In this document: piece after piece, positions 9,182-45,526 of the stretch
How positions within the stretch are numbered: the stretch's first letter is position 1
Layout: each line of letters begins with the position of its first letter
Assembly (NCBI GenBank): GCA_043819695.1
Contig: JBDREM010000360.1
Coordinates: 1 to 50,515, forward strand
DNA length: 50,515 bases
DNA from: Planctomycetota bacterium
Lineage (GTDB): Bacteria > Planctomycetota > PUPC01
Direction: 5' to 3'
Notes under the pieces: generated by a model
Databases searched by the model: none
Told to the model about the DNA's origin: nothing
Seen by the model: only the letters and a program-made list of their open reading frames with translations
Program-made: the position numbers and the translations under genes

Positions 9182-10365
9182 ACCTCGACGCGATAGCTCA
9201 GAACCTCCGATACGCTCAGGCCCGCGTCGGCGGGTCCGTCGGCGTGATGGCCGTCGTCAAGGCGAACGCCTACGGGCACGGCGCGGTCGACGTCGCCCGC
9301 GAGGCCGTGCGGCAGGGTGCGCGGGCGCTCGGCGTGGCGACGCCGGCCGAGGGGGTCGAGCTCCGCAGCGCCGGCATCGGCCTGCCGATCGTTGTCATCG
9401 GCTCCTGTCTCGAAGACGAGATCGAGCCGGCGGTCGAGCATGGCGTCTCGCTCTCGCTGTCGCCGGGCGAAATCTTCTGGCCGATCGTCGAGGCCGTGAA
9501 GAAGCTTGGGCGATGCGCCCACGTGCACGTGCTCGTCGACACGGGCATGTCGCGTGACGGCTTGCCGCCGGACGCCGCGCTCGAGCTTGCCGAGCACGTC
9601 GCCGACACCGCGCAGCTCCATCTCGAAGGCACATACAGCCATCTGGCGACCTCGGCGGGCCGCGACAAGACGTTTTGCCACGAGCAGCTCGACCGGTTCA
9701 ACCGCGCGATCAGCGAGATGCTCGCCCGCGACATCGACCCCGGCATGATCCATTGTGCGAGCAGCAGCGGGCTCTTCACGCTGCCGAGCGCCCACTTCGA
9801 CATGGTGAGGCAGGGCCTCACGCTCTACGGAGTCGCGCCGTCGCCGCACGTGGCGTCGGCGGCCGACCTCGTGCCGTCGATGTCGGTGAAGACCCGCGTG
9901 ATCGCGGTGAGGGAAATCGGCCCGGGCGAGAGCGTCGGATACATGCGGCACTTCACGGCCGAGCGGCCGACGCGCGTGGCAACCGTCCCGATGGGGTACG
10001 CCGACGGCCTGCGGCTGACCCAGCCGAACCGGGGCGCCGTGCTCATCAACGGCCGGCGGGCGCTCGTCGTCGGACGGATGATGATGGACTGCGTTGCGGT
10101 CGACGTCACGAGCCTGCCGAGCGTCCGGCTGGGCGACGAGGCCGTCGTGATCGGCAAGTCCGGCCGGAACGAGATCTCGGCGGTCGAGGTCGCCGAGTGG
10201 TGCGACTCCAGCCCATACGAGGTCTTCTGCTCGCTCGGCCGGCGCGTCCGCCGCATCTACACCCGCGGCGGCAAGCGCATCATCCCGCGCGAGACGGCCG
10301 CTGAACGCGACAGAGTCGACGACTCGGCCCGCGTGCCCGATCCCTCCCCGCCGCTTACCCCCTAG
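9145..10365 (+). CDS. alr: Alanine racemase
   Basis: PLP-lysine block VMAVVKANAYGHG, then HLATSA and VGYADG-type (PMGYADG) blocks. The gene overlaps the tsaB 3' end by 37 nt, so the start could be slightly downstream. Confidence 0.92.
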   Translation: MGTIAERVWAEIDLDAIAQNLRYAQARVGGSVGVMAVVKANAYGHGAVDVAREAVRQGARALGVATPAEGVELRSAGIGLPIVVIGSCLEDEIEPAVEHGVSLSLSPGEIFWPIVEAVKKLGRCAHVHVLVDTGMSRDGLPPDAALELAEHVADTAQLHLEGTYSHLATSAGRDKTFCHEQLDRFNRAISEMLARDIDPGMIHCASSSGLFTLPSAHFDMVRQGLTLYGVAPSPHVASAADLVPSMSVKTRVIAVREIGPGESVGYMRHFTAERPTRVATVPMGYADGLRLTQPNRGAVLINGRRALVVGRMMMDCVAVDVTSLPSVRLGDEAVVIGKSGRNEISAVEVAEWCDSSPYEVFCSLGRRVRRIYTRGGKRIIPRETAAERDRVDDSARVPDPSPPLTP

Positions 10366-10432
10366 CAGCCCCCGCACTCAAAAGGTATCATAAGGGGCGA
10401 CGGCACCGGGCCGAAGGAGATTCTCTCCGTTC

Positions 10433-13400
10433 ATGGGCAGCAAGAACAAGAAAGAGAAGAAGGACGAGGCGGGCGAGCGGGACAAGCAGAGGCCGCCCGG
10501 GGCCGGGGAGAAGAAGCGTGAAACGCGGCGAAAGGCGAAGAAGAGACGGCGGCGCCTGATCGCGTTCCTTGCCCTTGTCCTCGCCGTCATCGGCCTTCTT
10601 ATTCTTCACGCCCGGCTACCGCGCATCGCCAAGGGGGCGCTGGAGAAGGCGCTGCCGGTCCTGGCCGACGTCGGCAAGGCGTCGTTCTCGTGGCCCGGCA
10701 CAATCACGATCGAGGACGTCACCCTCCGCCGGACGTCCGACAAGAGCCAGCTATGCTCGATCAAGCGGATCGTGGCCCGGTGCCGTTTGCGGGGCCTGCT
10801 GGCCGCGCGGGTCGGGCTTGATTCCCTCGAGATCGAGAACGTGCTCCTTTCGCTCAGGCGAGGCGACGACAGCCTGCTCAGGGGCACGGGCCGCGTGCCC
10901 GACCACACGATCCAGGTGAAGGGGCTGTCGGCGCAGATTTCGCGGGAAGAGGGGGAAGGTCCGGGCCCCTGGCTCGACGTGTCGGGCGTGGCGGCGGTCT
11001 TGCAGCCGCAGGCGTCGGGCTGCATGAGCATCGAGGGCTCGGGCTCGAATTCCGCAATGGGCCGGTTCCGCCTGACCGGCATCTTGGGCGGGAAGGTGCT
11101 CGAAAGCCGGGTCGCCGCGACGTTCCCGCGCGTCCCGATCGGGCCGGACGTCCGCGGCATTCTGCCCAAAGAAGCGGCGGACCTTGTGGCAAAGCTCGAG
11201 CCGGCCGGCGAGGCCGAGCTGACCGCGGAGCTGTTCGTGCCGCGCGAACGGAAGAAGGCTGGCGCGGGTCTCGACGTGAGGTGGCGGCTGTCGCTGAACG
11301 GCGTTTCGCTGAAGCTCCCTCAGCTTTCGGACCGGATAACGGGCATCAAGGCGACCGTCGAGGGTACGGCGAAGGATTTCGTCGTGACCGACGCGACGGG
11401 GAGCTATCAGTCGGCGCTGCTCTCGTGCCGGGCCCACTCCCTGCCGGCCGATGGTTCGGTCGGGCTGATGGTCCGCGCCCAGGGGCGCGATCTGCGGCCG
11501 GCGCCCGACATCTTCAAGCTGCTGCCGCCGAAGGTGCGGAAGGAAGTCGAGCGGCTGCACATCGGCGGCGGCCGGTTCGACCTCGACCTCGAGCTGCGGC
11601 TCCCGTCTCTCGGGAAGCAGGCCGACGGCTCGCCGCCGAAAGCCGATTTCGTCCGGGCCGACCTCAGCCTGCGCGACTGCTCGGCCACGCCGGAGTGGTT
11701 CCCGTACAAGCTCGAGAAGATCACCGGCAAGCTCAGCATCGGGCTCGACGAGTTGGTCGTCACCGGCCCGCTGGTCGGCTGGCACGGCGCCGGCCGCATC
11801 AGAATGACGGGGACGATCGGCGTGAGCGAGGAGCGCGCATACTCCGAGATCGTCGTCGAGGCGAAGAACCTCGACGTCGGCGCCGGCCTCGATAAGGCCA
11901 TCGGCGCCCTGGGGCCGCAGACGCTCAAGACGTGGCGAAGTTACTCGCTGAAGGGCGGCACGGTCGACGCCGAGTTGAACATCCGGGGGTCGCTCGCCAA
12001 GGGCGCCGAGCGTGACTGGGCCGTCCGGCTGTCGTTCGACGGCTGCTCCGGCGCGTTCGGCGGCTTCCCCTACGCGCTGACCGGCCTGACGGGCCAGGTG
12101 GACATTGGGCCGACGCGCGTGTTCGTCAAGAACCTGACCGGCTGGCACGGGGATGCGACCGTCCGCATTTCGGGTTGGGCGGACGCGCGCCGCGACCGCA
12201 ACGAGATGAACATCCACGTCTGCGGCACGAACGTGCTGCTGGATGATGGCCTGGCGGCGGCGCTGCGGCCCGAGAACCGGAAGACGTGGGACCGGTTCCG
12301 CCCGTCGGGCGTCGCCGACATCGACGTGGTCCTGTCGACGCCCACCAGGAAGGACGCCGGCGTCGACGTGCGGTTGAGCGTTCTCCTGAAGGGTTGTTCC
12401 GCGCGGGCGCCCGCGGGCGAGAAATGGGTGCCGCTGGCCGACATCACCGGCCGCCTCGAGGCGTTCGGAGACGTCGTCCGCCTGACCGGCTTCAAGGCGA
12501 AGTGCCTCGACGGCCGAGCCGTCATCGACATGACCGCCATCGAGGCGGACGGCCTGACAAAGCTCCAGGGCGAGCTGGCCGGCGTCGGCCTCTCCGCCGA
12601 GAAGCTGATCGGGCTGCTGCCGGCGGACGCCGCCAGGAAGACCTCGTTCCTTGCGCCCTCGGGCAAGGTCGGGATCGGCAAGCTGAGCTTCGACGTCATC
12701 CAGCGGCCGGGGGAGAAGCCGGACGTGCAGTACCAGTGCGCCGGCGAGCTTCGCGACGCCCGAATCGCCATTCCGATGGCCGATGTGGCCGGCGAGCCGG
12801 ATGATGCGCAGGACGGCCGGCTGGCTCTGTCGGAGATCAGCGGGCGGTTCGATATCGAGAACGAACGCGGGCGCGCGGCGACGGGGACTTTCCGGCTGGA
12901 CCAGGTCCGCCTCCTTCACGGTACGATGCGGAACGTCGCCGGCAGGATCAAGAAGACCGGGCCCGTGTTCGCCCTCGAGGACGTGCGCGGCGAGATGTAC
13001 GGCGGCCGCGTCGAGGCATCGTTCAAGGGAGCGGCCGACTTGCTTTTCTTCACCGGCCACGCTCGCGTGATCGGGATGGACGTAGCGCGGCTGTGCCGCG
13101 AGACCGGCCTGACGAACGAGCGCGTCTGGGGCGACCTGGAGGGGACCGTCCAACTGGGCGGCGAGCGAGTCGTGCGGGAAGGGAAGAAGCCTGTCTGGCG
13201 CCTGGACGGCAGCGGCTCGTTCCAGATCGACCGGGCCAACCTGGGCCGCACGCCGCTCGTCAGGAGCATCTTCAGCTACAAGAGCTTCCTGCTCGGCGCG
13301 GAATCGGTGGTCGAGGGCGCCAAGCTCGATTTCGAGATCGATTCCAGGCAGCTCAAGATCCACAAGATGGAGTTGAGCGGGCCGGCGGTCCGCACCCGCG

Positions 13401-21121: not shown

Positions 21122-22099
21122 TCAGGCCTTCTTGGTGGTCCGGTGCCTGGGCTTCGCGGCGCGTCGCTTCTTCTTCCGCGACGGCTTCACCACGGCCGAC
21201 GACGTCTGCACCATCTTGGCGTCGGCCGGCGGCGCGGCGCGAGACGAGCGCCTCGTCTTCTTACGGGTGGATATCTTCAGCTTCTTGCTGCGAACCTCGA
21301 TCGTCTTCTTCAGCTTCTTCGTCGCCGCCCGTTTGCGCGCCCTGGCCCTGCGGTCACGGTCGCGCTGCTTCTTGACGTGCTTCTCTTCCGCTTCCCTCGC
21401 CGCCCGCTCCTTTTCTTCCTGAATCTGAAGCTGCTTCAGCTTCTCGGCGCCGGTGGGGCAATGCTCGTTTATCGGACAGGCCCGGCAATCGAAATCGTTC
21501 TCGGTGCATATTCGCTCGGCCAGCATCTCGAATGCGTGGAACACCCGCGGGACGGCCGCCTTCGGCACTATACGGCGGAGCGTCTTCATCTGCGAGTCAG
21601 CCGGCCCCGGCTTGATCATCTTCGTCCGCTTCGCAACCCTCAGCAGGCCGGCCCCCTCGGGGAGCTTCTCGCAGCCAAGGTTGGCGAGCAGGAACTCGCC
21701 GGCCACGCGGCTGGGCAGCGGCCTCAGCTTCAGCAGCTTCTTCTTCGCCTTCTCGATGTCCAACTCCAGGATGCTGTCCAGGTTCATCGCCTGCGCGTGG
21801 TTGAAGATCGCCGTAAGCGTATCCGTTACGAGCTTGCCGACGCTCGGGGGGTAGTCCCGGCCCAGCACCTCATCAAGCTCCTCGGGCACACAGACCCGGA
21901 CCTCGTTCAGGTCGACGAACTCACGCTCCAGTCGCTTGATAACACGTTTTCCCTGATCCTCCTTGCCGTCCCTGAGGAGCAGCGTAAGGAGAACCTGCTC
22001 GACCGGCGAATGAGCCCGGTACCGCTCCCGGCGGCCGAACTCTTTTTCCAGTATGGCGAAGATCGTCTTGAACTGCCGAATGGCTGAGATTCTGGCCAC
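21122..22099 (-). CDS. Endonuclease III-like (HhH / [4Fe-4S] loop) protein with highly basic Lys/Arg-rich C-terminal tail
   Basis: GTG start. The body resembles the HhH-GPD superfamily. The cluster loop CTENDFDCRACPINEHC has C-x6-C-x2-C-x5-C spacing. The last ~110 aa are about half K/R (KKQRDRDRRARARKRAATKKLKK...), resembling a histone H1 tail. Confidence 0.7.
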   Translation of the reverse strand: MARISAIRQFKTIFAILEKEFGRRERYRAHSPVEQVLLTLLLRDGKEDQGKRVIKRLEREFVDLNEVRVCVPEELDEVLGRDYPPSVGKLVTDTLTAIFNHAQAMNLDSILELDIEKAKKKLLKLRPLPSRVAGEFLLANLGCEKLPEGAGLLRVAKRTKMIKPGPADSQMKTLRRIVPKAAVPRVFHAFEMLAERICTENDFDCRACPINEHCPTGAEKLKQLQIQEEKERAAREAEEKHVKKQRDRDRRARARKRAATKKLKKTIEVRSKKLKISTRKKTRRSSRAAPPADAKMVQTSSAVVKPSRKKKRRAAKPRHRTTKKA

Positions 22100-22200: not shown

Positions 22201-22435
22201 CCTGGCCGGGTGAAGCGGGGCGCCGCTATCTGATACGCTGGTCGCATGTTATGTCCGGCCCACATTCGGCCCGCGCGGCGAACCACCCGGCGCCCTCGAA
22301 CGTTACATATACCCGCATGTGTATGTAGGACAAGAGCGTTTTCGCTTGACCACTGGGAGCGACGTGACTATAGTACGCGCCGCGCTGCCGAACGCGGCGC
22401 GTCCGGTCACGATTATGGCAGCTCGTTCAACAGGG

Positions 22436-23629
22436 ATGGACATGGCGAAGGTCGGCGTTTGGATTCTTGGCGCCTCGGGCTCTGTCGCGACGACGGCAAT
22501 GGCCGGCGCCGTCGCATTGGCCGGGCGCAAGGCCATGCCTACGGGCCTGGTCACCGCTCTGCCGCAGTTCCGTACCGTTAAGTTCTGCACGTTCGAGTCG
22601 ATGGTCTTCGGCGGACACGAGGTCCGCGAGCCCGACCTGCTCGGCGAACTGAAAGCCCTCCACGCCAACTCCGGCCTGCTCTCGCCGGAGATCATCAAGC
22701 TCGCAGCCCCCGCGTTCCGGCGGATCAAGAAGCGCATCCGGCCCGGCACGGCCATTGCCTGCGGCAAACCGGTCGAGAAAATGGTGGCGTTGAACCTCAT
22801 CAGCAGCAAGACCCCGGCCGGCGTCGTCCGGAAGATTCGCCGCGACCTTGAAGATTTCAAGAAGACGACCCGCTGCGACCGGCTCGTTGTGCTGAACCTG
22901 TCGAGCACCGAGCCGCCCTTCAAGCGCCAGGCCTGCCACAGGTCGCTCGGCGCGCTGAAAAAAGCGCTCGCCAAAGCCGGCCCGTCGCCGCTCCCCGCAA
23001 GCTCGCTCTACTGTATGGCCGCGCTCGAACTCGGCGCAGCCTATCTCAACTTCGCGCCCAGCCTCGGCCCCGACGTCCCCGCGTTCGCCGAACTCGCCGA
23101 GCAGACCGGCGGCCTCATGGCCGGGTCCGACGGCAAGACGGGCGAGACGCTCTGCAAGTCCGTCATCGCGCCGCTCTTTGCGATGCGCAATCTCCACATC
23201 CTCAGTTGGGTCGGCCATAACATCTTCGGCAACCGCGACGCCGACGTGCTCGACGACCCCGTCAACAAGGCGAGCAAGCTCAAGAGCAAGGACCACCTCG
23301 TCCGGTCGATCGTCGGCTACTCGCCAGAGACGCTCGTCACCATCGAGAAGATCTCGTCGATGGGCGACTGGAAGACCGCGTGGGACCACGTCCATTACGA
23401 GGGATTCCTCGGCACGAAGATGATCATGCAGTTCATCTGGCAGGGGTGCGACTCGATCCTGGCCGCGCCGCTCGCGCTCGACCTCGTCCGCCTGGCCGCG
23501 CTCGCGCTCGAACGCGGCGAGCGCGGCCTGATGACCCAGACCGCCTGCTTCTTCAAGAGCCCGATCGGCGTCGACGAGCAGGACATGTTCAAGCAGTTCC
23601 AGGCGCTGGAGACGTACCTCGATGCCTAG
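22436..23629 (+). CDS. myo-Inositol-1-phosphate synthase (MIPS)-family NAD-dependent enzyme
   Basis: N-terminal Rossmann block VGVWILGASGSVATT. MIPS-family blocks GSDGKTGETLCKSVIAPLF, SWVGHNIFGNRDADVL, NKASKLKSK and DSILAAPLALDLVRLA are present. The start is ATG at 22436 or 22442; the ORF track begins at 22319. Confidence 0.85.
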   Translation: MDMAKVGVWILGASGSVATTAMAGAVALAGRKAMPTGLVTALPQFRTVKFCTFESMVFGGHEVREPDLLGELKALHANSGLLSPEIIKLAAPAFRRIKKRIRPGTAIACGKPVEKMVALNLISSKTPAGVVRKIRRDLEDFKKTTRCDRLVVLNLSSTEPPFKRQACHRSLGALKKALAKAGPSPLPASSLYCMAALELGAAYLNFAPSLGPDVPAFAELAEQTGGLMAGSDGKTGETLCKSVIAPLFAMRNLHILSWVGHNIFGNRDADVLDDPVNKASKLKSKDHLVRSIVGYSPETLVTIEKISSMGDWKTAWDHVHYEGFLGTKMIMQFIWQGCDSILAAPLALDLVRLAALALERGERGLMTQTACFFKSPIGVDEQDMFKQFQALETYLDA

Positions 23630-24470
23630 CCCGGAAATCATCATCGAGCCGCACATCCACATGCTCTCCCGCACGACCGACGACTATCAGGCCATGTACC
23701 AGGCCGGCATCCGATGCTGCGTCGAGCCCGCATTCTGGCTAGGCACCCCGCGTCACTATCCCGGCACCTTCTACGACTACTTCGACCTGATCCTCGACTA
23801 CGAGACACTGCGCGGCGAACGATTCGGCATCGACCACTACGCCACCATCTCGGTCAATCCCAAGGAGGCCGACGACGCAGGGCTCGCGAGCGACACGCTC
23901 GACGGAATCGCGAGATACTTCGACCACCCCCGCTGCATCGGCGTCGGCGAGATCGGCTTCAACGAGATCACGAAGAACGAAGAGACCGCGTTCGTGCGGC
24001 AGCTCCACATGGCCGAGGAGCGGAAGCTCCCCGTGATGATCCACTCGCCGCACCGCAACAAGCGGAAGGGCGTCGAGCGCACCATCGAGATCCTCAAGGC
24101 CGAAGGTCTAACGATGAAGCGGATCGACATCGACCACAACACCGAGGACACCATCGACCTCGTCGCGCCGCTCGACTGCTGGGCCGGAATGACGGTCTAC
24201 CCCTACAGCAAGCTCGACCCGAAGCGGGTCGTCAATATACTCAAGCACTACGGCGTCGAGCGGATGATGGTCAACTCGTCCGCCGACTGGGGCGTGTCCG
24301 ATCCCACCGCACTCCGCAAGACCGCCGACCACATGGCCGACGCCGGCTTCTCCGACGATGACATCAAGAAGACACTCTTCGACAATCCGCTCGCGTTCTT
24401 CGGCCAGTGCGGCCGCTTCCAGCCGCGCCTCGACCTCGAGCCGCTGCCGATCGAATCATTTCAGCGGTGA
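23622..24470 (+). CDS. TatD-family metal-dependent hydrolase (EboB-like)
   Basis: EPHIHMLSRT (H-x-H), GEIGFNE, MIHSP and DHNTED blocks of the TatD/amidohydrolase fold. The ATG overlaps the upstream gene's stop by 8 nt. Confidence 0.85.
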   Translation: MPSPEIIIEPHIHMLSRTTDDYQAMYQAGIRCCVEPAFWLGTPRHYPGTFYDYFDLILDYETLRGERFGIDHYATISVNPKEADDAGLASDTLDGIARYFDHPRCIGVGEIGFNEITKNEETAFVRQLHMAEERKLPVMIHSPHRNKRKGVERTIEILKAEGLTMKRIDIDHNTEDTIDLVAPLDCWAGMTVYPYSKLDPKRVVNILKHYGVERMMVNSSADWGVSDPTALRKTADHMADAGFSDDDIKKTLFDNPLAFFGQCGRFQPRLDLEPLPIESFQR

Positions 24471-24590
24471 AGCGCGTTCAACGTTCAAAGTCTAATGTCT
24501 AACGTTAGATACTGAACGTCGGGCACGAAACGTTGGGCACCAGATAACGGATGTTGACCACGAAACGTTGAACATTAGACATTAGACGTT
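24471..24590. repeat. Low-GC structured spacer rich in AACGTT words
   Basis: A 13-bp perfect inverted repeat has arms GTCTAATGTCTAA (24490-24502) and TTAGACATTAGAC (24575-24587). A direct repeat CACGAAACGTTG occurs at 24524 and 24559. AACGTT occurs four times. Confidence 0.8.
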
Positions 24591-25466
24591 ATGAGAGTTG
24601 CATTCAGCACCAACGCGTTCACGAAATGCAGCGCCGAGGAGGCGATTGCCTCGATCGCAAAGGCGGGCTACGAGGGCGTCGAACTCATGCTCGATGCGCC
24701 TCATCTGTTCCCAGCCGATGCCACGCCCGAGAAGGTGGCGAGCATACGTAATGCCGCGGCGAGCGCCGGGCTCGCGTTCTCGAATGCGAACGCGTTCCCG
24801 ATGGCCGCCGTCGGCGACACCTGGAACCCTTCGTGGATCGACCCCGATCCCGAAGTGCGCCGGCAGCGCATCCGGCACACGGCCGACGCACTCCGGATCG
24901 CCAGCGACCTCGGCATCCCGAACATCAGCACCGAGCCCGGCGGACAATTGCCCGAAGGAGTGACGCGCGACGACGCGATGAAGCTCTTCGCAGCCGGCGT
25001 CGACGAAGTCCTGCCCGTTGCCGAGGAGACCGGAGTCACGCTCCTCGTCGAGCCCGAGCCGCATCTGCTCATCGAGCGAACGAGCGAGTATCTCGACTTC
25101 GCCGGCCGCATCTCGCACCCGAACCTCGCTCTCAACTTCGACATCGGCCACTTCTACTGCGTCGGCGAGGACCCCGCCGAACAGTTCCGCGTGCTCAGGC
25201 AATATGCGCGGCACGTGCACTTCGAAGACATCGCCGCGTCGCGCGAGCACCGCCACCTCCGGCCCGGCGACGGCGCCATAGACCTGCCCGGCATCGTGCT
25301 GACGATGATCGGCGAGGGCTACAGCGGCTGGATCACCGTCGAGCTCTATCCCTACGAAGACACCCCCTACGAGACCGCCTGCGCCGCGCTCCAATACATC
25401 CGCGAGAACGTAGAGCCTGAATGCCAAGTAACAAAGCCCAAATGCCAAAGCTCAAATAACAAATGA
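24591..25466 (+). CDS. Xylose-isomerase-like TIM-barrel protein (sugar phosphate isomerase/epimerase family)
   Basis: AP_endonuc_2-type pattern: STNAF...AGYEGVEL...LLVEPEP...NFDIGHF...HVHFED...ITVELYP. Confidence 0.85.
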   Translation: MRVAFSTNAFTKCSAEEAIASIAKAGYEGVELMLDAPHLFPADATPEKVASIRNAAASAGLAFSNANAFPMAAVGDTWNPSWIDPDPEVRRQRIRHTADALRIASDLGIPNISTEPGGQLPEGVTRDDAMKLFAAGVDEVLPVAEETGVTLLVEPEPHLLIERTSEYLDFAGRISHPNLALNFDIGHFYCVGEDPAEQFRVLRQYARHVHFEDIAASREHRHLRPGDGAIDLPGIVLTMIGEGYSGWITVELYPYEDTPYETACAALQYIRENVEPECQVTKPKCQSSNNK

Positions 25467-25572
25467 ATGTCAAATCGCCAAATCCCAATGGGAAACCAGG
25501 TCCTGGAGCCGGCTCTCAGGGGCATTCCTTTGGTCCTTCCAGCTTCGGGCTTCATTTGATATTTGAGCTTTG
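25446..25572. repeat. Long-range inverted repeat (21-bp arms, 1 mismatch) spanning the TIM-barrel stop and the UbiA gene leader
   Basis: CAAAGCTCAAATAACAAATGA (25446-25466) pairs with TCATTTGATATTTGAGCTTTG (25552-25572). The loop contains the palindrome CCAGGTCCTGG. Confidence 0.75.
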
Positions 25573-25597
25573 ACATTTGTCATTCCCCGGAGGGGAC

Positions 25598-26287
25598 ATG
25601 GGCAAGTTCGGTTCATGGCTCCGTCTTATCCGCATCGCCGCGCTGCCGACCGCGCTCGCCGACGTCTGGCTCGGCGCGGCGGCCGCCGATCAGTTCAGGA
25701 CGTGGAACGTTCTGTGGCTCAGCCTCATCTCGCTCGCGCTCTACACGGCCGGGATGATCCTCAACGATGTCTGCGACGTCGAGACCGACCGAGCGGAGAA
25801 TCCCGCTCGCCCGCTGCCGAGCGGCCGAATCCCCGTCGGCCTCGCCCGCACAGTCGGCCTGGTGCTGCTGGCCGGCGCCATTGGCGGGGCGCTTGCAGTT
25901 GGCCCGCGGACCGGTGCCACCGCAGCCGTGCTCGCGCTGCTCATCGTCAGCTATGATTTCTTCCTGAAGGCGACCCCCGCCGGCCCGGTGAACATGGGCC
26001 TGTGCCGCGCCTGCAACGTCGCTCTCGGCGCGTCCGTCGCATCGAGTTCTGCGATCATCCCCTTGTATGCGTTGCCCGTTCTTGTCTACGTCATCGCCGT
26101 GACATATCTGTCGCGGCACGAGGCCGGGCGGCCGCTCGTCCGTCGCATCGTGACGCTCGCCCTCGTCGGCATCATTCCGCTCCAGGCGCTCCTTGCAATC
26201 TTGTGTTCCCGTCCCGCGGCGGCGGGGTGTATACTGTTGCTCCTGGTCCCGGTGTTCGTGCTGAAGAAGCTCTCGCACATCACGTAA
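25598..26287 (+). CDS. UbiA-superfamily prenyltransferase (EboC-like)
   Basis: A polytopic membrane protein. The first Asp-rich motif is LNDVCDVETDRAENPARPLPSG (NDxxDxxxD). The ATG at 25598 has a GGAGGGG RBS; the ORF track starts at 25577. Confidence 0.85.
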   Translation: MGKFGSWLRLIRIAALPTALADVWLGAAAADQFRTWNVLWLSLISLALYTAGMILNDVCDVETDRAENPARPLPSGRIPVGLARTVGLVLLAGAIGGALAVGPRTGATAAVLALLIVSYDFFLKATPAGPVNMGLCRACNVALGASVASSSAIIPLYALPVLVYVIAVTYLSRHEAGRPLVRRIVTLALVGIIPLQALLAILCSRPAAAGCILLLLVPVFVLKKLSHIT

Positions 26288-26299
26288 CGGGAGGCGAAG

Positions 26300-27124
26300 G
26301 TGCTGATCGGATACAACACGAACGGCTTCGCGTTTCATCGGCTCGATGATGCGATCCAGATCATCGCCGACCTCGGCTACCAGTGCGTGGCGATCACGGT
26401 CGACCAGCACGCGCTCAATCCGTACGACGACATCGCCGCGCATGTCGAGAAGGCGCGGGCGCGGTTGAACGCGCTCGGCCTCTCGTCCGTCATCGAGACC
26501 GGCGCGCGGTTCCTGCTCGATCCGAGGCGGAAGCACCATCCGACATTGCTCGACCGCCGCGGCGCGGGCCGCGAACGGCGAATGGACTTCCTCAAGCGCT
26601 GCGTCGACATCGCCGAAGGGCTCGGATCGCTCGCCGTCAGCTTCTGGTCCGGTGCACTCGCTCCCGGACAGAGGGAGCGTGCGGCTTTCGATCTGCTGAG
26701 CAAGGCGTGCGCTGAACTGAGCGACTACGCCGCCGGGCGGGGCGTCGTGCTCGCGTTCGAGCCGGAGCCCGGGATGTTCGTCGACACGCTTGCGAAATAC
26801 GATCGCCTCGCCGAGGCCGTCGGCCGCGACAACTTTCGGCTCACCATCGACGTCGGGCATCTGCAATGCAACGAGGCCGACGCGCCCGGCGATTTGATCC
26901 GCCGATACGCGCCGCGGCTCGCGAACGCGCACCTCGACGACATGTGCCGCGGCGCCCACGATCACCTATTCTTCGGTGAGGGCGAAGTCGATTTCGGGCC
27001 GGTCTTTGCAGCGCTCAAGGCGGCGGAGTATGACGGCCCGGCGTGTGTCGAGCTCTCGCGCCACAGTCACAACGCCGTCGACATTGCCGAAAGAGCGAAG
27101 CAGTTCCTCGACCGCTTCGGCTGA
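26300..27124 (+). CDS. Xylose-isomerase-like TIM-barrel protein (EboE-like)
   Basis: GTG start after GGGAGG. GYNTNGF...LAFEPEPG...TIDVGHL...HLDD...CVELS pattern. Confidence 0.85.
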   Translation: MLIGYNTNGFAFHRLDDAIQIIADLGYQCVAITVDQHALNPYDDIAAHVEKARARLNALGLSSVIETGARFLLDPRRKHHPTLLDRRGAGRERRMDFLKRCVDIAEGLGSLAVSFWSGALAPGQRERAAFDLLSKACAELSDYAAGRGVVLAFEPEPGMFVDTLAKYDRLAEAVGRDNFRLTIDVGHLQCNEADAPGDLIRRYAPRLANAHLDDMCRGAHDHLFFGEGEVDFGPVFAALKAAEYDGPACVELSRHSHNAVDIAERAKQFLDRFG

Positions 27125-27137
27125 GCAGGCCAAACCC

Positions 27138-27185
27138 GAACATGTCACTTTTCAGTAACACCTGTTACTGAAAAGTGACATGTTC
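27138..27185. terminator. Perfect 23-bp stem / 2-nt loop hairpin (possible terminator or processing signal; no U-tract)
   Basis: GAACATGTCACTTTTCAGTAACA-CC-TGTTACTGAAAAGTGACATGTTC, 14 nt after the stop at 27124. Confidence 0.5.
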
Positions 27186-27270
27186 GCGGAGCAAGGCCGA
27201 GCCGTGATCTTGCACTTGTGGGTAACAGGTGGGGCTGCTAAAGGGCTCGCCCGCTCACAGAGCGGGCCTA

Positions 27271-27340
27271 CAAAAAGCCCCAGAACGCCGCGAAACGGTT
27301 GTTCCTGTAGGCCGACTTTGTAAGTCGGCGGTTCCCTGCG
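27271..27340. repeat. Copy 1 of a ~70-bp dispersed intergenic repeat with an internal hairpin (GCCGACTT-TGT-AAGTCGGC)
   Basis: The reverse complement aligns at roughly 85-90% identity with 37537-37595. Confidence 0.8.
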
Positions 27341-27401
27341 CGCTTTTCAACAGCCCCAGGTGCTATCCAAGGGCGCCAAATTCGCTGGGAGAGGTGAAGG
27401 G

Positions 27402-28736
27402 ATGCCAGGCCACATCGTCGTCATCGATCTCGTCGGTGCGGTGCCGAAGCACTTCGACCGGCCGGCGCTGTTCCCGGAGCTTGCGGCGATCTTCCGCACG
27501 GGCGGCGTCCGCGCGCTCGAACCGGTCTTCCCCGCGCTCACCTGCCCGGTCCAGGTGAGCATGACGACCGGCACGCTGCCGTCGCAGCACGGGATCATCG
27601 CGAACGGCCTTTTCGACCGGGCCGAGCGCAAGCCGACGCTCTGGACCTGGCCGGGCTCGAAGATCGAGCGGCCGCCGGTCTGGGAGATGCTCCGCAAACG
27701 CATGCCGCGCGCGAGGTCGGCCGTGATGTTCTTCCAGGGCCTGAAGGCGACGACGGCCGACATCTACCTGAACCCGCATCCGAAGCACACGTCCGACGGC
27801 AAGACGATCCCGTGGTGCGACTCGGGCCCCGCCGGCCTCTACGAGCGGCTCGCCGAGAAGCACGGCCACTTCCCGCTTCACAAGTACTGGGGGCCGATGG
27901 CCGGCATCGAGTCGAGCGAGTGGATTCTTAACGCGTCACTTCGCGCGCTCGCGGAGTTCCGGCCGGAGCTCTCGCTGGTCTATGTGCCGCACCTCGATTA
28001 CGCCGGCCAGCGCTGCGGTCCGGACAGTGCCGAGTTCGCCGCCGAGGCGAGGCGTATCGACAGCCTGGTCGCTCAGTTCATTCGCGACCTGGGCAAGGCG
28101 TTCGCGCCTTCGAAGCCGGCGGTCGTGCTCGTGTCGGAGTACGCGATGGTGCCGGTGTCGCGGGCGGCGCTGCCGAACGTCGCTCTGCGCGACGCCGGGC
28201 TGCTGTCGGTTACGGAAGAGGAGAGCGGCGAGCTGCTCGACCTCGACGCGAGCAAGGCGTTCGCGATGGTCGATCACCAGGTGGCGCACGTCTACGCTGA
28301 TGATGACGCGGCCGACGATGCGGCGGCCGCGCTCGGCGAGCTGCCCGGCGTCGCCGAGGTCTGCCGCGGCGAGCGGCGGACCAGCCTGGGCGTCGCGCAC
28401 CCGAACTCGGGCGAACTGGTCCTGCTGGCCGAGCCGGACGCGTGGTTCGCCTACTACTGGTGGCACGATTCGGCGAAGGCGCCGGCGTTCGCGCGCACGG
28501 TCGACATTCACCGGAAGCCGGGCTATGATCCGGTCGAGCTGTTCATCGATCCGGCGACGAAATCTATCCCGCTCGACCCGGGCCTCGTCCGCGGGAGCCA
28601 CGGCCTGCCGCCGAAGGGTCCCGGCGACTGCGGCGTGCTGGCCGTCAGCGGCCCGCCCATCCCGGCCACCGGGCCGCTCAACGCCGCCGCACTCGCACCC
28701 ATCCTCCTCGATCTCGTTGTGCGCACAGGGGATTAG
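27402..28736 (+). CDS. Alkaline-phosphatase-superfamily nucleotide pyrophosphatase/phosphodiesterase (EboF-like)
   Basis: VIDLVG...FPALTCPVQVSMTTGTLPSQHGIIANG (metal/nucleophile Thr block of type I phosphodiesterases), then YVPHLDYAGQ and GSHG. The ATG at 27402 follows GAGAGGTGAAGG. Confidence 0.85.
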   Translation: MPGHIVVIDLVGAVPKHFDRPALFPELAAIFRTGGVRALEPVFPALTCPVQVSMTTGTLPSQHGIIANGLFDRAERKPTLWTWPGSKIERPPVWEMLRKRMPRARSAVMFFQGLKATTADIYLNPHPKHTSDGKTIPWCDSGPAGLYERLAEKHGHFPLHKYWGPMAGIESSEWILNASLRALAEFRPELSLVYVPHLDYAGQRCGPDSAEFAAEARRIDSLVAQFIRDLGKAFAPSKPAVVLVSEYAMVPVSRAALPNVALRDAGLLSVTEEESGELLDLDASKAFAMVDHQVAHVYADDDAADDAAAALGELPGVAEVCRGERRTSLGVAHPNSGELVLLAEPDAWFAYYWWHDSAKAPAFARTVDIHRKPGYDPVELFIDPATKSIPLDPGLVRGSHGLPPKGPGDCGVLAVSGPPIPATGPLNAAALAPILLDLVVRTGD

Positions 28737-28748
28737 CGACACTACCTT

Positions 28749-28829
28749 CCTAATCTTACTCTTAATCCTAATCCTAATCGTGCTCTCAGACAGAAAGGGA
28801 TCAGGATTAAGATCAGGATTAAGATTAGG
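28749..28829. terminator. Inverted repeat built from CCTAAT/TTAATC words between convergent genes (candidate bidirectional terminator)
   Basis: CCTAATCTTACTCTTAATCCTAATCCTAATC (28749-28779) pairs with GATCAGGATTAAGATCAGGATTAAGATTAGG (28799-28829). The arms are imperfect, with an indel. Confidence 0.45.
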
Positions 28830-28855
28830 ACAGAAGGCTCATCAGGGGCTTGCGC

Positions 28856-38461: not shown

Positions 38462-39727
38462 TCAATCTCCCGGCGGCTGTTGGCCGACCACGCAGACGGC
38501 GCCGCACGCCGGGCACTTGGCGCATTTACCCGCATGGGCGGCGGCGGCGCGGAGCTTGGTCCCGCAGGAGGGGCACTCGACGAGGAGCCACTGAGCGGAG
38601 TCCGGCGGCCGGCCCGGCCCGGCGCATTTGGTGCACCGTTCGGTGGCGTCATCGAAGTGATCGGCGCAGAAGGCCTTCCCGCACTGCGGGCAAAGCCGGG
38701 CGTGCGCTGTGCACAGGACCTGCTTGCACGCCGCGCACTGCGAGACGTGGTTGACGCAGACGCGGGCGCCGCACTGGGAGCACTCGAAAGCGCAGTCGGC
38801 ACAGGCGGCGGAGCCGCAGATCGAGCACCGCTGCACGTGCTCTTCGCACAGGGCCTTGTTGCAGCTTGCGCACGTGGCGGCGTGTTCGACGCAGACCGCC
38901 TGGCGGCAGACGGCGCACTGCCGGACGTGGTCGAGGCACACCTGCCGGCCGCACTTCGAGCATTTGATGATGCAGTCGGGACAGCCGGAGTTGTCACAGA
39001 GCGAACAGGTTCCGATGTGGGTCTTGCAGGTAACCTGAGCGCACTGGGGGCACGTGCCGCTGCACGCCTTGCACACGACATGTTCGCACACGGGGCACGT
39101 CCGGGGCTTGCAGAGCAGGCACAGGGATCGCTGGCAGCTTTCGCAGACCACGACGCAGTCGGCGCAGACGGAGTGGCCGTTGACGCAGCGCGTGATGGTT
39201 CCCCTGCGGCCGCGGCAGTTCTGGCACTCTCCCTCTTTCGCGGCGCTCCGTTGGATGTCCGACCAGGCGGAGGGCGAGAAGTCCCTCGGGTCGGTCGGCA
39301 CGAGGCCGGTGTTCTCGTCGACCCATCGCGCGGCCGCGCCGTTCAACGGGCTCTTTGTGTTGTAGCTCTGATAAGCCAGCATCTCGCCGATGCGGATGAT
39401 GAGGTTGAGGAGGGATTCGCCGGCGGCCCAGTGGTCGCCGATGCAGATGGCATGCGGCGCGATGTTCGGATGGAAGACGGGGGTGAGCATTCGGCACTGT
39501 GGCGCCTGGCGGGGGTAACCGAGTGTAAGGTAAATCTCGGCCAGGTGCTCGAGCCGTTCGGTGACGTCGCCTTCGGCGGTCTCGTGGAGGCTTCGGACCT
39601 TGAACTCGATCTGGTACCGGTCGGGCGGGCTGCCGGAGACCCCTCGGACGCGGAAGGCCGGGTGGTCCCGGAGCCCCTCCTTGATCTCTTCGTAGTCGGC
39701 TTGTATCCGTCGGAGTCGAACGCTCAC
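38462..39727 (-). CDS. Ubiquitin-conjugating enzyme (E2/UBC-fold)-like protein fused to a ~245-aa Cys-rich zinc-binding tandem array
   Basis: Residues 1-135 read RLRRIQADYEEI...YQIEF...YPRQAPQCRMLTPVFHPNIAPHAICIGDHW...LLNLIIRIGEML, giving the HPN motif plus a candidate catalytic Cys94. Residues 168-413 hold about 11 tandem 15-aa modules C-x2-C-x4-C-x2-[HC]-x3, followed by a terminal zinc ribbon. The GTG start forms a GTGA overlap with the upstream gene. Confidence 0.8.
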   Translation of the reverse strand: MSVRLRRIQADYEEIKEGLRDHPAFRVRGVSGSPPDRYQIEFKVRSLHETAEGDVTERLEHLAEIYLTLGYPRQAPQCRMLTPVFHPNIAPHAICIGDHWAAGESLLNLIIRIGEMLAYQSYNTKSPLNGAAARWVDENTGLVPTDPRDFSPSAWSDIQRSAAKEGECQNCRGRRGTITRCVNGHSVCADCVVVCESCQRSLCLLCKPRTCPVCEHVVCKACSGTCPQCAQVTCKTHIGTCSLCDNSGCPDCIIKCSKCGRQVCLDHVRQCAVCRQAVCVEHAATCASCNKALCEEHVQRCSICGSAACADCAFECSQCGARVCVNHVSQCAACKQVLCTAHARLCPQCGKAFCADHFDDATERCTKCAGPGRPPDSAQWLLVECPSCGTKLRAAAAHAGKCAKCPACGAVCVVGQQPPGD

Positions 39728-41001
39728 TGCTGCTCGTCCCGGGTTTCTTCCTTCGGCGTCGAAGGGGTCATCTGGAGCTTCAGCGCTCCGTGTTCTTCAA
39801 TGAGCGGGATGAGGTCGGAGACCACGATCGAGAAGCTTATGCCGGCGGCGGTGCCGCGGCCTGCCGTGAAGGTGTTGATCCCGATCAGGCCGCCGTCCTG
39901 CCTGTACAGCCCGCCCCCGCTGTTCCCGGGATTGAGCGGCAGCTGCATCTGGATGATCCGCAGTATCTTCTCGCCCAGGTCGTTGCGCCGTATCGCCGAG
40001 ATGACTCCCTTGCCGTACGACCAGCCCAGGCCGAGCGGATTGCCGACGGCGAAGACGGATTCGCCGATGTTGAGCGTCGGGCTCGAGGCGACTTGGGCGG
40101 TGTCGAACGAGCTCTTGCCCGCCGGGCACGTGAGCAACGCGATGTCGATGCCGGTGGGCGCCCGCCACTCCACCTTCGCCTCCTTCTGCGTGCCGTCCGC
40201 GAAGGTGACCGTTATCGCCGGCGGCCCGCCGGAGAACAGCCCATCGGCCCCGTTGATGACGTGGCGATTGGTGATGATGACCACACGGCCCTGCTGGTTC
40301 GCGAGGATTACGCCGGACCCCGCGGACATCGAGCCGCGCCCGCCGGCAACAATCATCACGTTCGCCCGGATCGCCTTCCGGATAGACTCCGGGATGGTGG
40401 AGGCGTCGTCTATGCCGTAGACCTGGTCGGGCCGGATGAGGCCGGGCGGCTCGAGCGGCATGGTCGTGTCGCGCTGGCTCAGGTAAAAGAGACAGAAGCC
40501 CGCGGCCCATGCCACGATCTCGACCACGCCCACGATGACCGCGGCCGCCGCGAACCCCATCCCCTTCAGGTCGCGGCGCGAGTTGATGAAGCCGACCGCA
40601 ATGGACCCGAGCACGATCGCCAGAAAGCCCGGCACACCGAACGCGAACAGGCCGACGATTGCGCACACGAACGCCACCACCGCCAGAACGCTCAGGCGCC
40701 TCCGGCCCGGCGAGACGACCGGCGACCAGCCGGGCGGCACGACCCGCGGCGGCTGCGGCGGAGCCGGCGTCCGGGCAACGTCCTCCGCAGTGACGACGAG
40801 GTCCGGCTGGGCCCGTCCGGCGGGCGACGCACATTCGTATGCGTGGCAGCGGCCGCTCTCGATCCAGCAATGCTCGTGCTGGATGTGGCCGCAGATCGGG
40901 CAGGACCCAACCGTCTGCCCGGACCGGATGGCCTGCTGGCAGCAAGGACACAACTGGCCCTGCTGCAATTTGCCGGCGACGAACATCTCAGGATTCGACA
41001 T
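39724..41001 (-). CDS. C4HC3 RING/PHD-like finger - TM segments - trypsin-like (S1/HtrA-like) serine protease fusion
   Basis: The N-terminal finger is CPCC-x12-CPIC-x4-H-x2-CW-x5-C-x4-C. Hydrophobic segments follow (LSVLAVVAFVCAIVGLFAFGVPGFLAIVLGSIAV, AAAAVIVGVVEIVAWAAGFCLF). The protease triad context is TNRHV / DIALL / GNSGGG. Confidence 0.8.
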   Translation of the reverse strand: MSNPEMFVAGKLQQGQLCPCCQQAIRSGQTVGSCPICGHIQHEHCWIESGRCHAYECASPAGRAQPDLVVTAEDVARTPAPPQPPRVVPPGWSPVVSPGRRRLSVLAVVAFVCAIVGLFAFGVPGFLAIVLGSIAVGFINSRRDLKGMGFAAAAVIVGVVEIVAWAAGFCLFYLSQRDTTMPLEPPGLIRPDQVYGIDDASTIPESIRKAIRANVMIVAGGRGSMSAGSGVILANQQGRVVIITNRHVINGADGLFSGGPPAITVTFADGTQKEAKVEWRAPTGIDIALLTCPAGKSSFDTAQVASSPTLNIGESVFAVGNPLGLGWSYGKGVISAIRRNDLGEKILRIIQMQLPLNPGNSGGGLYRQDGGLIGINTFTAGRGTAAGISFSIVVSDLIPLIEEHGALKLQMTPSTPKEETRDEQQ

Positions 41002-41046
41002 GTCTGCCCCGATCGGCTGTCCCTGTGAAAAACGTGCCCCCTGCTG

Positions 41047-41775
41047 CTACATGACCACTGTAAACAGGATTATACTGTAAAACAAGCTCAATATCACCGA
41101 GCCATACGCAAGAACTTCGTGCGGCCCCCCGGCCCTCCGCAGCGCCTTGCGGGATCGCCAGAGCCAGATCGGGGCGACGAACACAAGGATGGGGGCCGGG
41201 ACCCCGAGGACGCTGAGCGCGAACAGAACGATTGCCTGGGTGCGGACCCGGCCGAGTTGCGACTCCGACGTGCCCCACGCGCGGTACTCGGCGCTCGTCA
41301 TCGGAACGGGCGACGGGAACCGGGCCTTGCAGAAGCGGCACTTGACGGCCACCGAACGAATGGGTTTCCCGCATCGCGGGCAGGCTTTCTCGTCGCCCCA
41401 TCCGCCCTGCCCGTCGGCCGCCTCGTCCTCCGGCTTCGGCGCCTTGGGCATGAGCTCGCAGCCGTAGGTCGCGCAGCCGCCGATCTCGTCCCAGCACTCA
41501 CGATGATAAGCAGCGCGGCACTCGGAGCAGGAGCAGGCCGTGTCGCCGTGCGCGATTGGCGTGCGGCACACCACGCAGACCTGTCCGGCCAGTTCGCCGG
41601 ACCCGGCCGAGAGCGGCCCCCTTGCCGCCGCGGGCGCTGCATCGGCTGCGGCGCCGTCGGCCGCGGGGACCGTCGCGACCCGGCCGCACTTGGGACATTT
41701 CGCGCGCTTCCCCGCGGCCGACGCCGGCGCCGAAATCCGCTGCCCGCATTTGCAGTTGTAGATGATCTGCATCAC
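41047..41775 (-). CDS. Zinc ribbon - C4HC3 RING/PHD-like finger - zinc ribbon - TM protein (E3-like paralog 1)
   Basis: The finger is CVVC-x12-CSEC-x4-H-x2-CW-x5-C-x4-C. The flanking ribbons are CKCG...CPKCG and CPRCG...CRFC. The C-terminus has hydrophobic helices. The start is GTG at 41775 or ATG at 41772. Confidence 0.75.
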   Translation of the reverse strand: MMQIIYNCKCGQRISAPASAAGKRAKCPKCGRVATVPAADGAAADAAPAAARGPLSAGSGELAGQVCVVCRTPIAHGDTACSCSECRAAYHRECWDEIGGCATYGCELMPKAPKPEDEAADGQGGWGDEKACPRCGKPIRSVAVKCRFCKARFPSPVPMTSAEYRAWGTSESQLGRVRTQAIVLFALSVLGVPAPILVFVAPIWLWRSRKALRRAGGPHEVLAYGSVILSLFYSIILFTVVM

Positions 41776-41799
41776 ACATGTCCCGCGCGCCGCGGCCCG

Positions 41800-42594
41800 C
41801 TACATCGAGCTCGCCGCGATCAGGTTAATAATGATGTACAGAAGGCACACGACAAAGCCAATGATGCCTAGGATTATCCCGGCCGTCGCCATCCCTTTGC
41901 CGGCTATCCTGCCGCGGCTCGCCCTGATCTCCGTTTGCGCGCTCAGGCCCAAGCCGATAGCAATGATGCCGGTGATGACGCCGCAACAGATGAAGGAGGC
42001 GATGCCGAGAATGAGCGAGGCGATCGCCTTGCCGCTCGTGCTCGCCGGCGCCGCACGGGCGCGTCCCGGGCCGGCGGCGAGGAACTCGCCGCAGTGGCGG
42101 CACTTGACGGCGGAGGCGGCGATCTGCTCGCCGCAGAACGGGCAGGGCTTCGTGCCCGCGCCCGCGGCGACGGGCGCCGGCGCCTGAGCAGCGGCCGGCT
42201 TCGGCGCAATCTTCGGCAGCGGCGCGTTCGCGCACGAGGCCGTGCCGCAGCCGCCGTTCGACTGCCAGCACGAATCGTGGAAAGACCGGCCGCACTGTTG
42301 GCAGTTCCGCACCGCCTCGCCGAGACTGATGGCGTTGCCGCATATCGTGCACGTCCTGCCGGCGACCGCGCGGTTGGCCGCCATCTGCTCCGGCAGCCCG
42401 TCGGCGCCCGGCCCGGCGGACAGCGGCTCGGCGGCGGCCGGCTGATGCTCGGGCTCCGGCGAGACGGGCGCGGCGGCCGCATCCGGCACGCGGATCGTGG
42501 CCCCGCAGTCCCGACACTTGCCCGACCGGCCGGCTGCGTCTTCCGGAACGGTGTATTGCTTGCCGCACTTGGGACACTCGACGATGATGCTCAT
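41800..42594 (-). CDS. Zinc ribbon - C4HC3 RING/PHD-like finger - zinc ribbon - TM (DUF4190-like) protein (E3-like paralog 2)
   Basis: The finger is CTIC-x12-CQQC-x4-H-x2-CW-x5-C-x4-C. The flanking ribbons are CPKCG...CRDCG and CPFCG...CRHCG. The C-terminus has two Gly/Ile-rich TM helices. Confidence 0.75.
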   Translation of the reverse strand: MSIIVECPKCGKQYTVPEDAAGRSGKCRDCGATIRVPDAAAAPVSPEPEHQPAAAEPLSAGPGADGLPEQMAANRAVAGRTCTICGNAISLGEAVRNCQQCGRSFHDSCWQSNGGCGTASCANAPLPKIAPKPAAAQAPAPVAAGAGTKPCPFCGEQIAASAVKCRHCGEFLAAGPGRARAAPASTSGKAIASLILGIASFICCGVITGIIAIGLGLSAQTEIRASRGRIAGKGMATAGIILGIIGFVVCLLYIIINLIAASSM

Positions 42595-45517: not shown

Positions 45518-45526
45518 GGGACCTCC

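Follow-up and report, generated by a model that had tools for sequence, protein, structure and literature searches.

The 50,515-nucleotide stretch analyzed here (contig JBDREM010000360.1, positions 1 to 50,515 of the forward strand, GenBank assembly GCA_043819695.1; hereafter the window) comes from an uncultured Planctomycetota bacterium and carries, at 22436-28736 on the + strand, six co-directional genes, the first of which encodes an enzyme of the myo-inositol-phosphate synthase (MIPS) family. Judging by the sequence comparisons, this locus is a planctomycete relative of the ebo cluster, trimmed and led by MIPS, i.e., a variant of a known system. It is the most consolidated form seen of a module common in the phylum. 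It probably serves an ebo-type pathway with a MIPS entry, which would yield a prenylated cyclitol-derived metabolite of the thallusin or saccharoquinoline type.

The six-gene block

The genes were taken from the list of open reading frames (ORFs), in which all six have a third-position GC content of the coding type (0.82-0.89). They are the following:

22436 or 22442 to 23629, + strand: MIPS (Ino1-like, NAD-dependent sugar-phosphate cyclase family), 395-397 amino acids
23622-24470, + strand: TatD-like metal-dependent hydrolase (COG1099; EboB orthologue), 282 amino acids
24591-25466, + strand: first TIM barrel (TIM1), 291 amino acids
25598-26287, + strand: UbiA protein, 229 amino acids as in its nearest relatives (alternative ORF start at 25577)
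26300-27124, + strand: second TIM barrel (TIM2), 274 amino acids
27402-28736, + strand: phosphodiesterase / nucleotide pyrophosphatase of the alkaline-phosphatase superfamily (EboF orthologue), about 444 amino acids (the ORF opens at 27360)

The starts of the MIPS, UbiA, and phosphodiesterase genes were set by the lengths of their homologues; a GTG at 22319 was rejected as the MIPS start because the relatives of this protein have 395 residues. The Pfam domains were all well above their gathering scores: NAD_binding_5 (PF07994, 149 bits) and Inos-1-P_synth (PF01658, 99.5 bits) in MIPS, TatD_DNase (50 bits) in the TatD-like protein, AP_endonuc_2 (PF01261) in TIM1 (149 bits) and TIM2 (136 bits), UbiA (64 bits) in the UbiA protein, and Phosphodiest (PF01663, 172 bits) over the full length of the product of the last gene. 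The ORF list and these matches confirm the six co-directional genes and the domains, including the second TIM barrel, which were named in a preliminary description of the window. The 8-nt overlap between the TatD start and the upstream stop, also reported there, is found in the octamer ATGCCTAG, which contains both the TatD start and the MIPS stop.

Both flanks of the block lie on the - strand, a gene encoding a 325-residue protein and hisG being located upstream and gatB, which is convergent, downstream; the six genes therefore form a discrete block. The window is GC-rich (about 65%) and chromosomal (clpX, clpP, tig, purC, alr, hisG, gatB, rpoD, and dnaG are present), and no compositional break was detected at the operon.

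EboB, EboF, and the MIPS-type cyclase

At the sequence level, the TatD-like protein and the phosphodiesterase are clear and specific orthologues of EboB and EboF, rather than generic members of their families. The former shows 42% identity with the EboB of Aureibacter (E 1e-83), 45% with that of Embleya, and 37% with the acidobacterial reference, with E-values ranging from 1e-58 to 1e-84, and scores only 33 bits against the generic TatD model. Its top match in the PDB is 3guw (AF_1765, 89 bits), the structure cited along with COG1099, the eboB annotation, in the supplementary table of a 2026 preprint (10.64898/2026.05.21.724671). An HxH motif (HIH) is present at its N-terminus. The phosphodiesterase shows 35% identity with the EboF of Aureibacter (E 9e-96), 41-42% with that of Embleya, and 40% with the acidobacterial sequence (E 1e-86 to 1e-96, over about 430 residues), as well as 43% with the copy present in Adhaeretor.

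The MIPS protein aligns end to end with the MIPS of Archaeoglobus fulgidus of known structure (1u1i; 259 bits, 38% identity), with conservation of both the N-terminal NAD-binding part and the set of catalytic Lys and Asp residues. In an alignment of 24 related sequences, the residues D232, K281, K285, K313, D339, and K374 are invariant, and they align with D225, K274, K278, K306, D332, and K367 of the A. fulgidus enzyme, which we take from mutant studies of the latter to be the catalytic residues. We therefore read the protein as a predicted active MIPS-type cyclase. It shows 40% identity with the cluster-linked MIPS of Embleya and is about as distant from the archaeal enzyme; it is very distant from the actinobacterial mycothiol Ino1 model (28 bits, cut-off 638), and the five-membered-cyclitol-phosphate synthase of the same family (PDB 6k96) gives only 43 bits. 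It differs from the A. fulgidus MIPS in its context, since the window gene sits in an operon of the secondary-metabolite type, to which it is translationally coupled.

The two TIM barrels

An all-against-all comparison of the barrels gave three clean groups, corresponding to TIM1, TIM2, and EboE. The TIM1 group consists of the proteins from the window, the related contig L005, the locus L007, and Adhaeretor (259-401 bits to the window TIM1), and the TIM2 group of those from the window, L005, and Adhaeretor plus the barrel adjacent to UbiA in Embleya (235-390 bits). Because it groups with the latter, TIM2 is common to the window and the actinomycete cluster. Its identity is 49% with this Embleya barrel (L009, 10968-11810; E 2e-77, 248 bits) and 47% with the TIM2 of Adhaeretor, and it is likely to be the counterpart of one of the Ino2 and Ino3 proteins of the preprint, as far as this similarity indicates. 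TIM1 orthologues with 45-52% identity adjoin MIPS and UbiA across the Planctomycetota; TIM1 scores only 40 bits against the second Embleya barrel, in a comparison made with Embleya as the proxy for Saccharomonospora. This second Embleya barrel was also considered as a TIM-EboA fusion, and no EboA signal was found in it; TIM-EboA fusions have been reported (PMC5133447).

The best PDB match of TIM1 is the 3-dehydroshikimate dehydratase AsbF (43 bits), followed by weaker matches to IolE and QuiC; TIM2 best matches UlaE and ketose 3-epimerases. Since the scores are low throughout, the functional assignments drawn from them are hints only. In the preliminary description, a TIM barrel was counted in the domain set of the ebo cluster, and UbiA and TIM-barrel proteins falling outside the EboC/EboE clades were named there as evidence against the proposal. 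For the barrels, this is what was found: with the EboE model NF035939 (cut-off 250 bits), TIM1 scores 26.7 bits and TIM2 gives no match, and BLAST comparisons of both barrels with three EboE references give at most 31 bits. Neither barrel qualifies as EboE.

A shortened EboC-like UbiA protein

Among the NCBIfam families, the EboC family ranks top, ahead of the SCO3242 family, for the window UbiA and for all its relatives. The window protein scores 149 bits with the EboC model NF035940 and 136 bits with the SCO3242 model NF045897, the cut-offs being 250 and 260, respectively, so that the assignment to EboC implied in the preliminary description stands as far as the best family is concerned and falls short of the equivalog cut-off. 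Full-length relatives from the same lineage score 147-155 bits with the EboC model, other planctomycete UbiA proteins 191-212 bits, and the acidobacterial EboC 315 bits. The identity with the EboC of Aureibacter amounts to 35%. The NDxxDxxxD motif noted at the outset is present as NDVCDVETD (N56-D57-x-x-D60-x-x-x-D64), and R173 and E175 are conserved. In a neighbour-joining tree based on few references, which carried no support values and did not include the experimentally tested EboC, the window UbiA was placed together with canonical EboC and the planctomycete UbiA proteins, as opposed to the SCO3242 outgroup. The tested Stieleria EboC sequence was not among the matches in a homologue search starting from a Pirellulaceae UbiA, which listed only metagenomic relatives and Anatilimnocola.

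The closest relatives, about 17 in number, have 229-234 residues, and the next ones about 300. The difference corresponds to an internal deletion of about 75 residues located directly after R173-x-E175, as the result of which two hydrophobic segments are gone while the C-terminal helices are kept. Since this deletion has been conserved, with identical boundaries, across the 229-234-residue proteins, which are 56-88% identical, the short UbiA protein is predicted to be probably functional. The AlphaFold model is a confident one (pLDDT 93, pTM 0.89), and its best fold matches are digeranylgeranylglyceryl phosphate (DGGGP) synthase, AfUbiA, and ApUbiA (TM-scores of about 0.62-0.68). The possibility that the protein might be C-terminally truncated, or the gene a pseudogene, was rejected in view of the shared boundaries of the internal deletion, the retention of the C-terminal helices, and the confident model.

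Comparison with the known ebo clusters

The ebo operon was defined in 2016 and its proteins were described as new families (Yurchenko et al., PMC5133447); the Planctomycetes were noted in the same study as unclustered, with eboD missing in two of three species. The statement in the preliminary description that the product of ebo is still unknown is outdated, since in the preprint of May 2026 (10.64898/2026.05.21.724671) the ebo genes track thallusin, a seaweed growth signal, in 27 of 35 strains. In that study, knockouts of eboB, eboC, eboE, and eboF in Stieleria maiorica abolish thallusin, EboC from three phyla farnesylates hydroxyquinaldic acid, and both an active EboC from Stieleria neptunia and thallusin from several planctomycetes are reported. 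In the Actinomycetota-type cluster described there, eboD is missing, and a bypass is proposed to run through ino1 (MIPS) together with ino2 and ino3, which encode isomerases/dehydratases; both saccharoquinoline and thallusin are made by an actinomycete in which ino1-3 take the place of eboD. The mention of MIPS-containing ebo variants in the preliminary description is borne out by these ino1-3 clusters. As regards the Planctomycetota, the preprint gives scattered ebo genes, with eboA absent from most of them and eboD present in the thallusin-producing members. A cluster entered its screen if it contained four or more of nine query proteins, and planctomycete clusters such as the present one would probably have been counted.

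Three reference clusters were used: the RefSeq-annotated eboA-B-C-D-E-F operon on plasmid pAT1 of Aureibacter tunicatorum (L008), the eboC-D-x-B-E-F cluster of Acidobacteria bacterium SCN 69-37 (L091), and that of Embleya sp. NBC_00888 (L009), which served as a sequence proxy for the ino/ebo cluster of Saccharomonospora sp. CNQ-490. With the canonical eboABCDEF operon (PMC5133447), the window shares homologous EboB, EboC-like, and EboF proteins encoded co-directionally in one block. It differs from this operon in lacking EboA, the dehydroquinate synthase-like EboD, and EboE (roughly 380-400 residues), in having instead MIPS and two barrels of about 280 residues, and in its shortened UbiA. The Embleya cluster has the order barrel (-), MIPS, SCO3242-family UbiA, small barrel, EboB, EboE, EboF. 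In both this cluster and the window, MIPS replaces EboD and is accompanied by small xylose-isomerase-like barrels, EboB, UbiA, and EboF. However, Embleya has a bona fide EboE (413 bits), which is missing in the window, and its UbiA passes the SCO3242 model with 340 bits, whereas with the window UbiA the EboC model is the higher-scoring of the two. The gene order and the host phylum are also different, and the window TIM1 has no clear Embleya orthologue.

No EboA, EboD (two references, E <= 0.01), or EboE was detected in the 50-kb window by tblastn, nor were any PF01761 proteins found there, in line with the absence of EboD and EboA noticed in the preliminary description. The reading of the block as an ebo cluster is borne out by the EboB and EboF orthologues and the EboC-like UbiA, and not by EboE, which is missing, or by the score of UbiA, which is under the cut-off. 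The missing EboE may be encoded elsewhere in the genome, may have been replaced by TIM1, or may be unnecessary, in which case the product may differ.

The gene located at 21122-22099 on the - strand, divergent from the cluster, encodes a conserved 325-residue protein without any Pfam match, the first 225 or so residues of which are 52-65% identical in the contigs L001, L004, L005, and L010. It has a C-x-x-C...C cluster in a helix-rich N-terminal part and a long Lys/Arg-rich tail. It was considered as an EboA-like partner and treated as a neighbour; outside the lineage of the window it was not found, and within this lineage hisG and MIPS always flank it.

No description of a compact, MIPS-led planctomycete cluster without EboE was found in the literature. 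The replacement of EboD by MIPS is already described in the preprint; not described there are the compact planctomycete operon between hisG and gatB, the missing EboE, TIM1, the deletion of about 75 residues in UbiA, and the recurrent MIPS-TIM1-UbiA(-TIM2) arrangement.

Conservation in relatives and distribution in Planctomycetota

The same order was found between hisG and gatB in relatives with MIPS identities of 67-94%, on metagenome contigs (L001, L004, L005, and L094) and contigs of metagenome-assembled genomes (MAGs; L088 and L010). The gene order, the loss of which in relatives had been set beforehand as an outcome that would speak against the proposal, is thus kept in at least six related contigs. 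The lineage is placed in the Planctomycetota by record titles and source names. The patterns observed are as follows:

L001 and L002: MIPS-TatD, an inserted small gene, then TIM-UbiA-TIM
L004: all six genes plus one inserted ORF
L005: all six genes, with three genes inserted after TatD and a full-length UbiA of 304 residues
L088: all six genes
L094 and L010: MIPS-TatD up to the contig end

The 8-nt overlap between MIPS and eboB is kept in L001 and L094. The identities between the window and L005 are 75% for MIPS, 78% for TatD, 69% for TIM1, 59% for UbiA, 70% for TIM2, and 72% for the phosphodiesterase, which indicates that all six genes are under constraint. In L088, MIPS matches in two pieces (10001-10504 and 10558-11190, within 10001-11190), suggesting a frameshift or an assembly error.

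Species-representative genomes were scanned with the MIPS alignment. At least 589 loci were found, the best 80 of which were examined; nearly all of these are titled Planctomycetota and belong to many families, three having other labels. TIM1 and/or UbiA are directly downstream of MIPS in 20 of the 49 informative loci, i.e., those with at least 4 kb downstream of MIPS (41%). The distribution of the downstream genes is the following:

TIM1-UbiA: 6 loci
UbiA: 5 loci
TIM1-UbiA-TIM2: 4 loci
TIM1: 3 loci
TIM1-UbiA-TIM2-EboF: 1 locus
Full set of five (the window's lineage): 1 locus
No UbiA or TIM within 6 kb: 29 loci

EboE or a true EboD was found within 10 kb of MIPS in none of the 80 loci. The apparent EboD beside MIPS in Gemmataceae (L034, L058, L060, L069, and L087) was rejected, as it is the housekeeping aroB (365-378 bits, above the aroB cut-off). 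In these Gemmataceae and related genomes, aroB is located 0.2-2 kb upstream of MIPS, two sugar-phosphate cyclases being thus recurrently paired.

Genomes in which the module occurs with other attachments include the cultured Adhaeretor mobilis (CP036263, L090), which carries TIM1-UbiA-TIM2-EboF with EboB nearby, and a Planctomycetaceae MAG (L093) with TIM1-UbiA-TIM2; a Pirellulaceae MAG has a solitary UbiA. In these modules (L090 and L093, and the MIPS-linked L007, L015, and L086), the orthologues occur in the same order as in the window, with EboF, EboB, or MIPS variably attached. The presence of all six genes in one block and the coupling of eboB with MIPS distinguish the window's lineage, in which alone they were seen, as does the short UbiA, which some of its members have, the window included. 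No name for the planctomycete TIM1-UbiA-TIM2 module was found in the literature searches. An inositol monophosphatase family gene (PF00459) is present in L093 at 3726-4529, about 5 kb upstream of TIM1-UbiA-TIM2.

Proposed pathway and alternatives

In the pathway which we consider to be the probable one, MIPS would convert glucose-6-phosphate into myo-inositol-3-phosphate, as its identity with the solved MIPS and the conservation of the catalytic residues suggest. TIM1, which is AsbF/IolE-like and probably a dehydratase, and the ketose-3-epimerase-like TIM2 might then rework the ring, and EboF and/or EboB would remove the phosphate. The result might be a deoxy-inosose or a polyhydroxy-aromatic intermediate, corresponding to the Actinomycetota bypass to the EboD product put forward in the 2026 preprint. 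According to the model in the preprint, this intermediate and L-aspartate would give a hydroxylated quinaldic acid. The membrane-bound EboC-like UbiA would prenylate the latter, possibly with farnesyl diphosphate, the donor in the assays of the preprint, and the end product would be a meroterpenoid of the saccharoquinoline/thallusin type, either secreted or associated with the membrane.

Several points weigh against this pathway. The cluster contains no inositol dehydrogenase, although an inosose is the substrate of IolE-type dehydratases. For TIM1, the Embleya cluster offers no clear counterpart, the score with its second barrel being the 40 bits given above. UbiA is below both curated cut-offs and is shorter by about 75 residues, including two predicted helices, which the tested EboC proteins would have. 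EboE, which according to the preprint is core and essential in Stieleria maiorica, is missing from the operon as well as from the 50-kb window, and the link with thallusin rests on one preprint.

A distinct pathway sharing ebo parts is unlikely, although it accounts for some of these points. MIPS-TIM1-UbiA-TIM2(-EboF-EboB) would in this case make another product from myo-inositol phosphate instead of thallusin, for example an O- or C-prenylated inositol or inosose (phosphate) which might serve many Planctomycetota as a quinone-like cofactor or as a lipid of the membrane or envelope. The absence of EboE and EboD and the fact that TIM1 was not seen in either the canonical or the Embleya clusters are consistent with such a pathway, and the breadth of the distribution (at least 589 MIPS loci, with TIM1 and/or UbiA in 41% of the informative ones) is easier to reconcile with a core metabolite than with a niche signal. 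The operon is located among housekeeping genes without any compositional break. On the other hand, the orthology of EboB, EboF, and TIM2 to proteins of ebo or ino/ebo clusters is specific, and the preprint documents thallusin from several planctomycetes along with the active EboC of Stieleria neptunia. UbiA can be read either way: it misses both curated models and its best structural matches are lipid prenyltransferases (DGGGP synthases), but these fold matches do not discriminate the acceptor substrate, and in the neighbour-joining tree canonical EboC shares one group with the UbiA proteins of planctomycetes, be they solitary or linked to MIPS or TIM. It is a rather doubtful proposition that the phylum has a pathway of its own to a prenylated cyclitol or aromatic lipid, operating without EboD and EboE and with a UbiA still working after the loss of two transmembrane helices.

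That a housekeeping ino1 adjoins an incomplete ebo remnant by chance, without any functional link, is very improbable. The protein does look like a fully competent MIPS, its neighbours are housekeeping genes, and in 29 of the 49 planctomycete loci neither UbiA nor TIM follows MIPS within 6 kb. However, the 8-nt overlap with eboB is conserved in relatives, the adjacency of MIPS, TIM1, and UbiA recurs in many planctomycete families, an independent MIPS paralogue is present in the actinomycete ebo cluster, and none of the six genes is decaying, as can be seen from the 59-78% identity between the window and L005. A separate housekeeping ino1, named in the preliminary description as an outcome against the proposal, is thus disfavoured by the translational coupling of MIPS to eboB, which is conserved in relatives. 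As for an inositol or sugar catabolic (iol-like) locus, to which the weak matches of both barrels to IolE, IolO, hydroxypyruvate isomerase, and ketose epimerases might point, it can practically be dismissed, since these matches amount to 44-56 bits against cut-offs of 290-350, MIPS is a biosynthetic enzyme, the block contains no IolG, IolD, IolC, IolB, transporter, or regulator, and a membrane UbiA has no place in catabolism.

Promoter match and intergenic repeats

Returning to the six-gene operon and its proposed ebo-type pathway, the putative expression signals are the following:

22346-22374, + strand: sigma-70-like promoter match TTGACC-17-TATAGT, 10 of 12 positions matching the consensus (consensus match only), about 60 nt upstream of MIPS
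24480-24590: AT-rich inverted repeat filling the EboB/TIM1 gap, arms of 20-27 nt, folding free energy (dG) -34.5 kcal/mol, z -2.45
25439-25579: long inverted repeat from the TIM1 stop to upstream of UbiA, 29-nt arms, 93% complementary, dG -55.5 kcal/mol, z -4.35
27137-27186: perfect hairpin in the TIM2/EboF gap, 24-nt arms, 100% complementary, about -53 kcal/mol for the region, z -6.75
28748-28830: inverted repeat of CCTAAT-like units after the last gene, facing gatB, 32-nt arms, 84% complementary, dG -36.4 kcal/mol, z -5.4

The promoter match lies downstream of the GTG at 22319 and thus fits the MIPS start at 22436 or 22442. Every sizeable gap of the cluster, as well as the region following its last gene, contains a long inverted repeat rich in AT, of a kind that is rare in the rest of the 50-kb window. 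The repeats are unlikely to be conserved in L088, where the TatD/TIM1 gap is only about 36 nt long; in other relatives, genes are inserted in the same gaps, and L094 ends there. No U-tracts were found at the repeats, a consensus scan detected no + strand terminators in the cluster, and Rfam gave no known RNAs in it. Transcript processing or stability, termination without a U-tract, and scars of mobile elements are candidate roles or origins of the repeats. A promoter upstream of MIPS probably drives the expression of all six genes together, and the transcript may be subdivided or stabilised by the strong hairpins located in the gaps.

Other features of the window

Three further loci, all on the - strand, were recorded. 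The region 38462-46741 carries a prokaryotic ubiquitin-like conjugation operon which could be of the Bil/Bub type:

45527-46741, - strand: ThiF-type E1 (PADLOC E1-E2 and BilD models, weak to moderate scores)
44213-45517, - strand: JAB peptidase
42734-44110, - strand: FHA protein
41001-42734, - strand: no annotation
39724-41001, - strand: trypsin-like peptidase with a prokaryotic RING finger
38462-39727, - strand: UQ_con E2-like protein

An apparent toxin-antitoxin module at 48102-48792 pairs a HepT-like RNase with a nucleotidyltransferase of the MNT type, the latter scoring 93 bits against the PADLOC candidate family PDC-S09. At 3687-3758, just upstream of the trigger-factor gene, Rfam identifies a tRNA gene (71.5 bits); it is overlapped by the longest ORF called for tig, whose true start therefore probably lies further downstream.

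Implications

As the locus is a variant of a system which is now being characterised, its practical value is modest. It qualifies the published picture of scattered ebo genes in planctomycetes, since many of these bacteria link MIPS directly to UbiA, and no EboD stands beside the surveyed loci. If EboE is truly missing from these genomes, then either TIM1 stands in for it or another product is made. In the ebo/thallusin pathway, the steps leading from the cyclitol to the prenylated quinoline lack assigned enzymes, and the compact operon provides a natural minimal set from which to learn which genes are needed and what roles TIM1 and TIM2 play.

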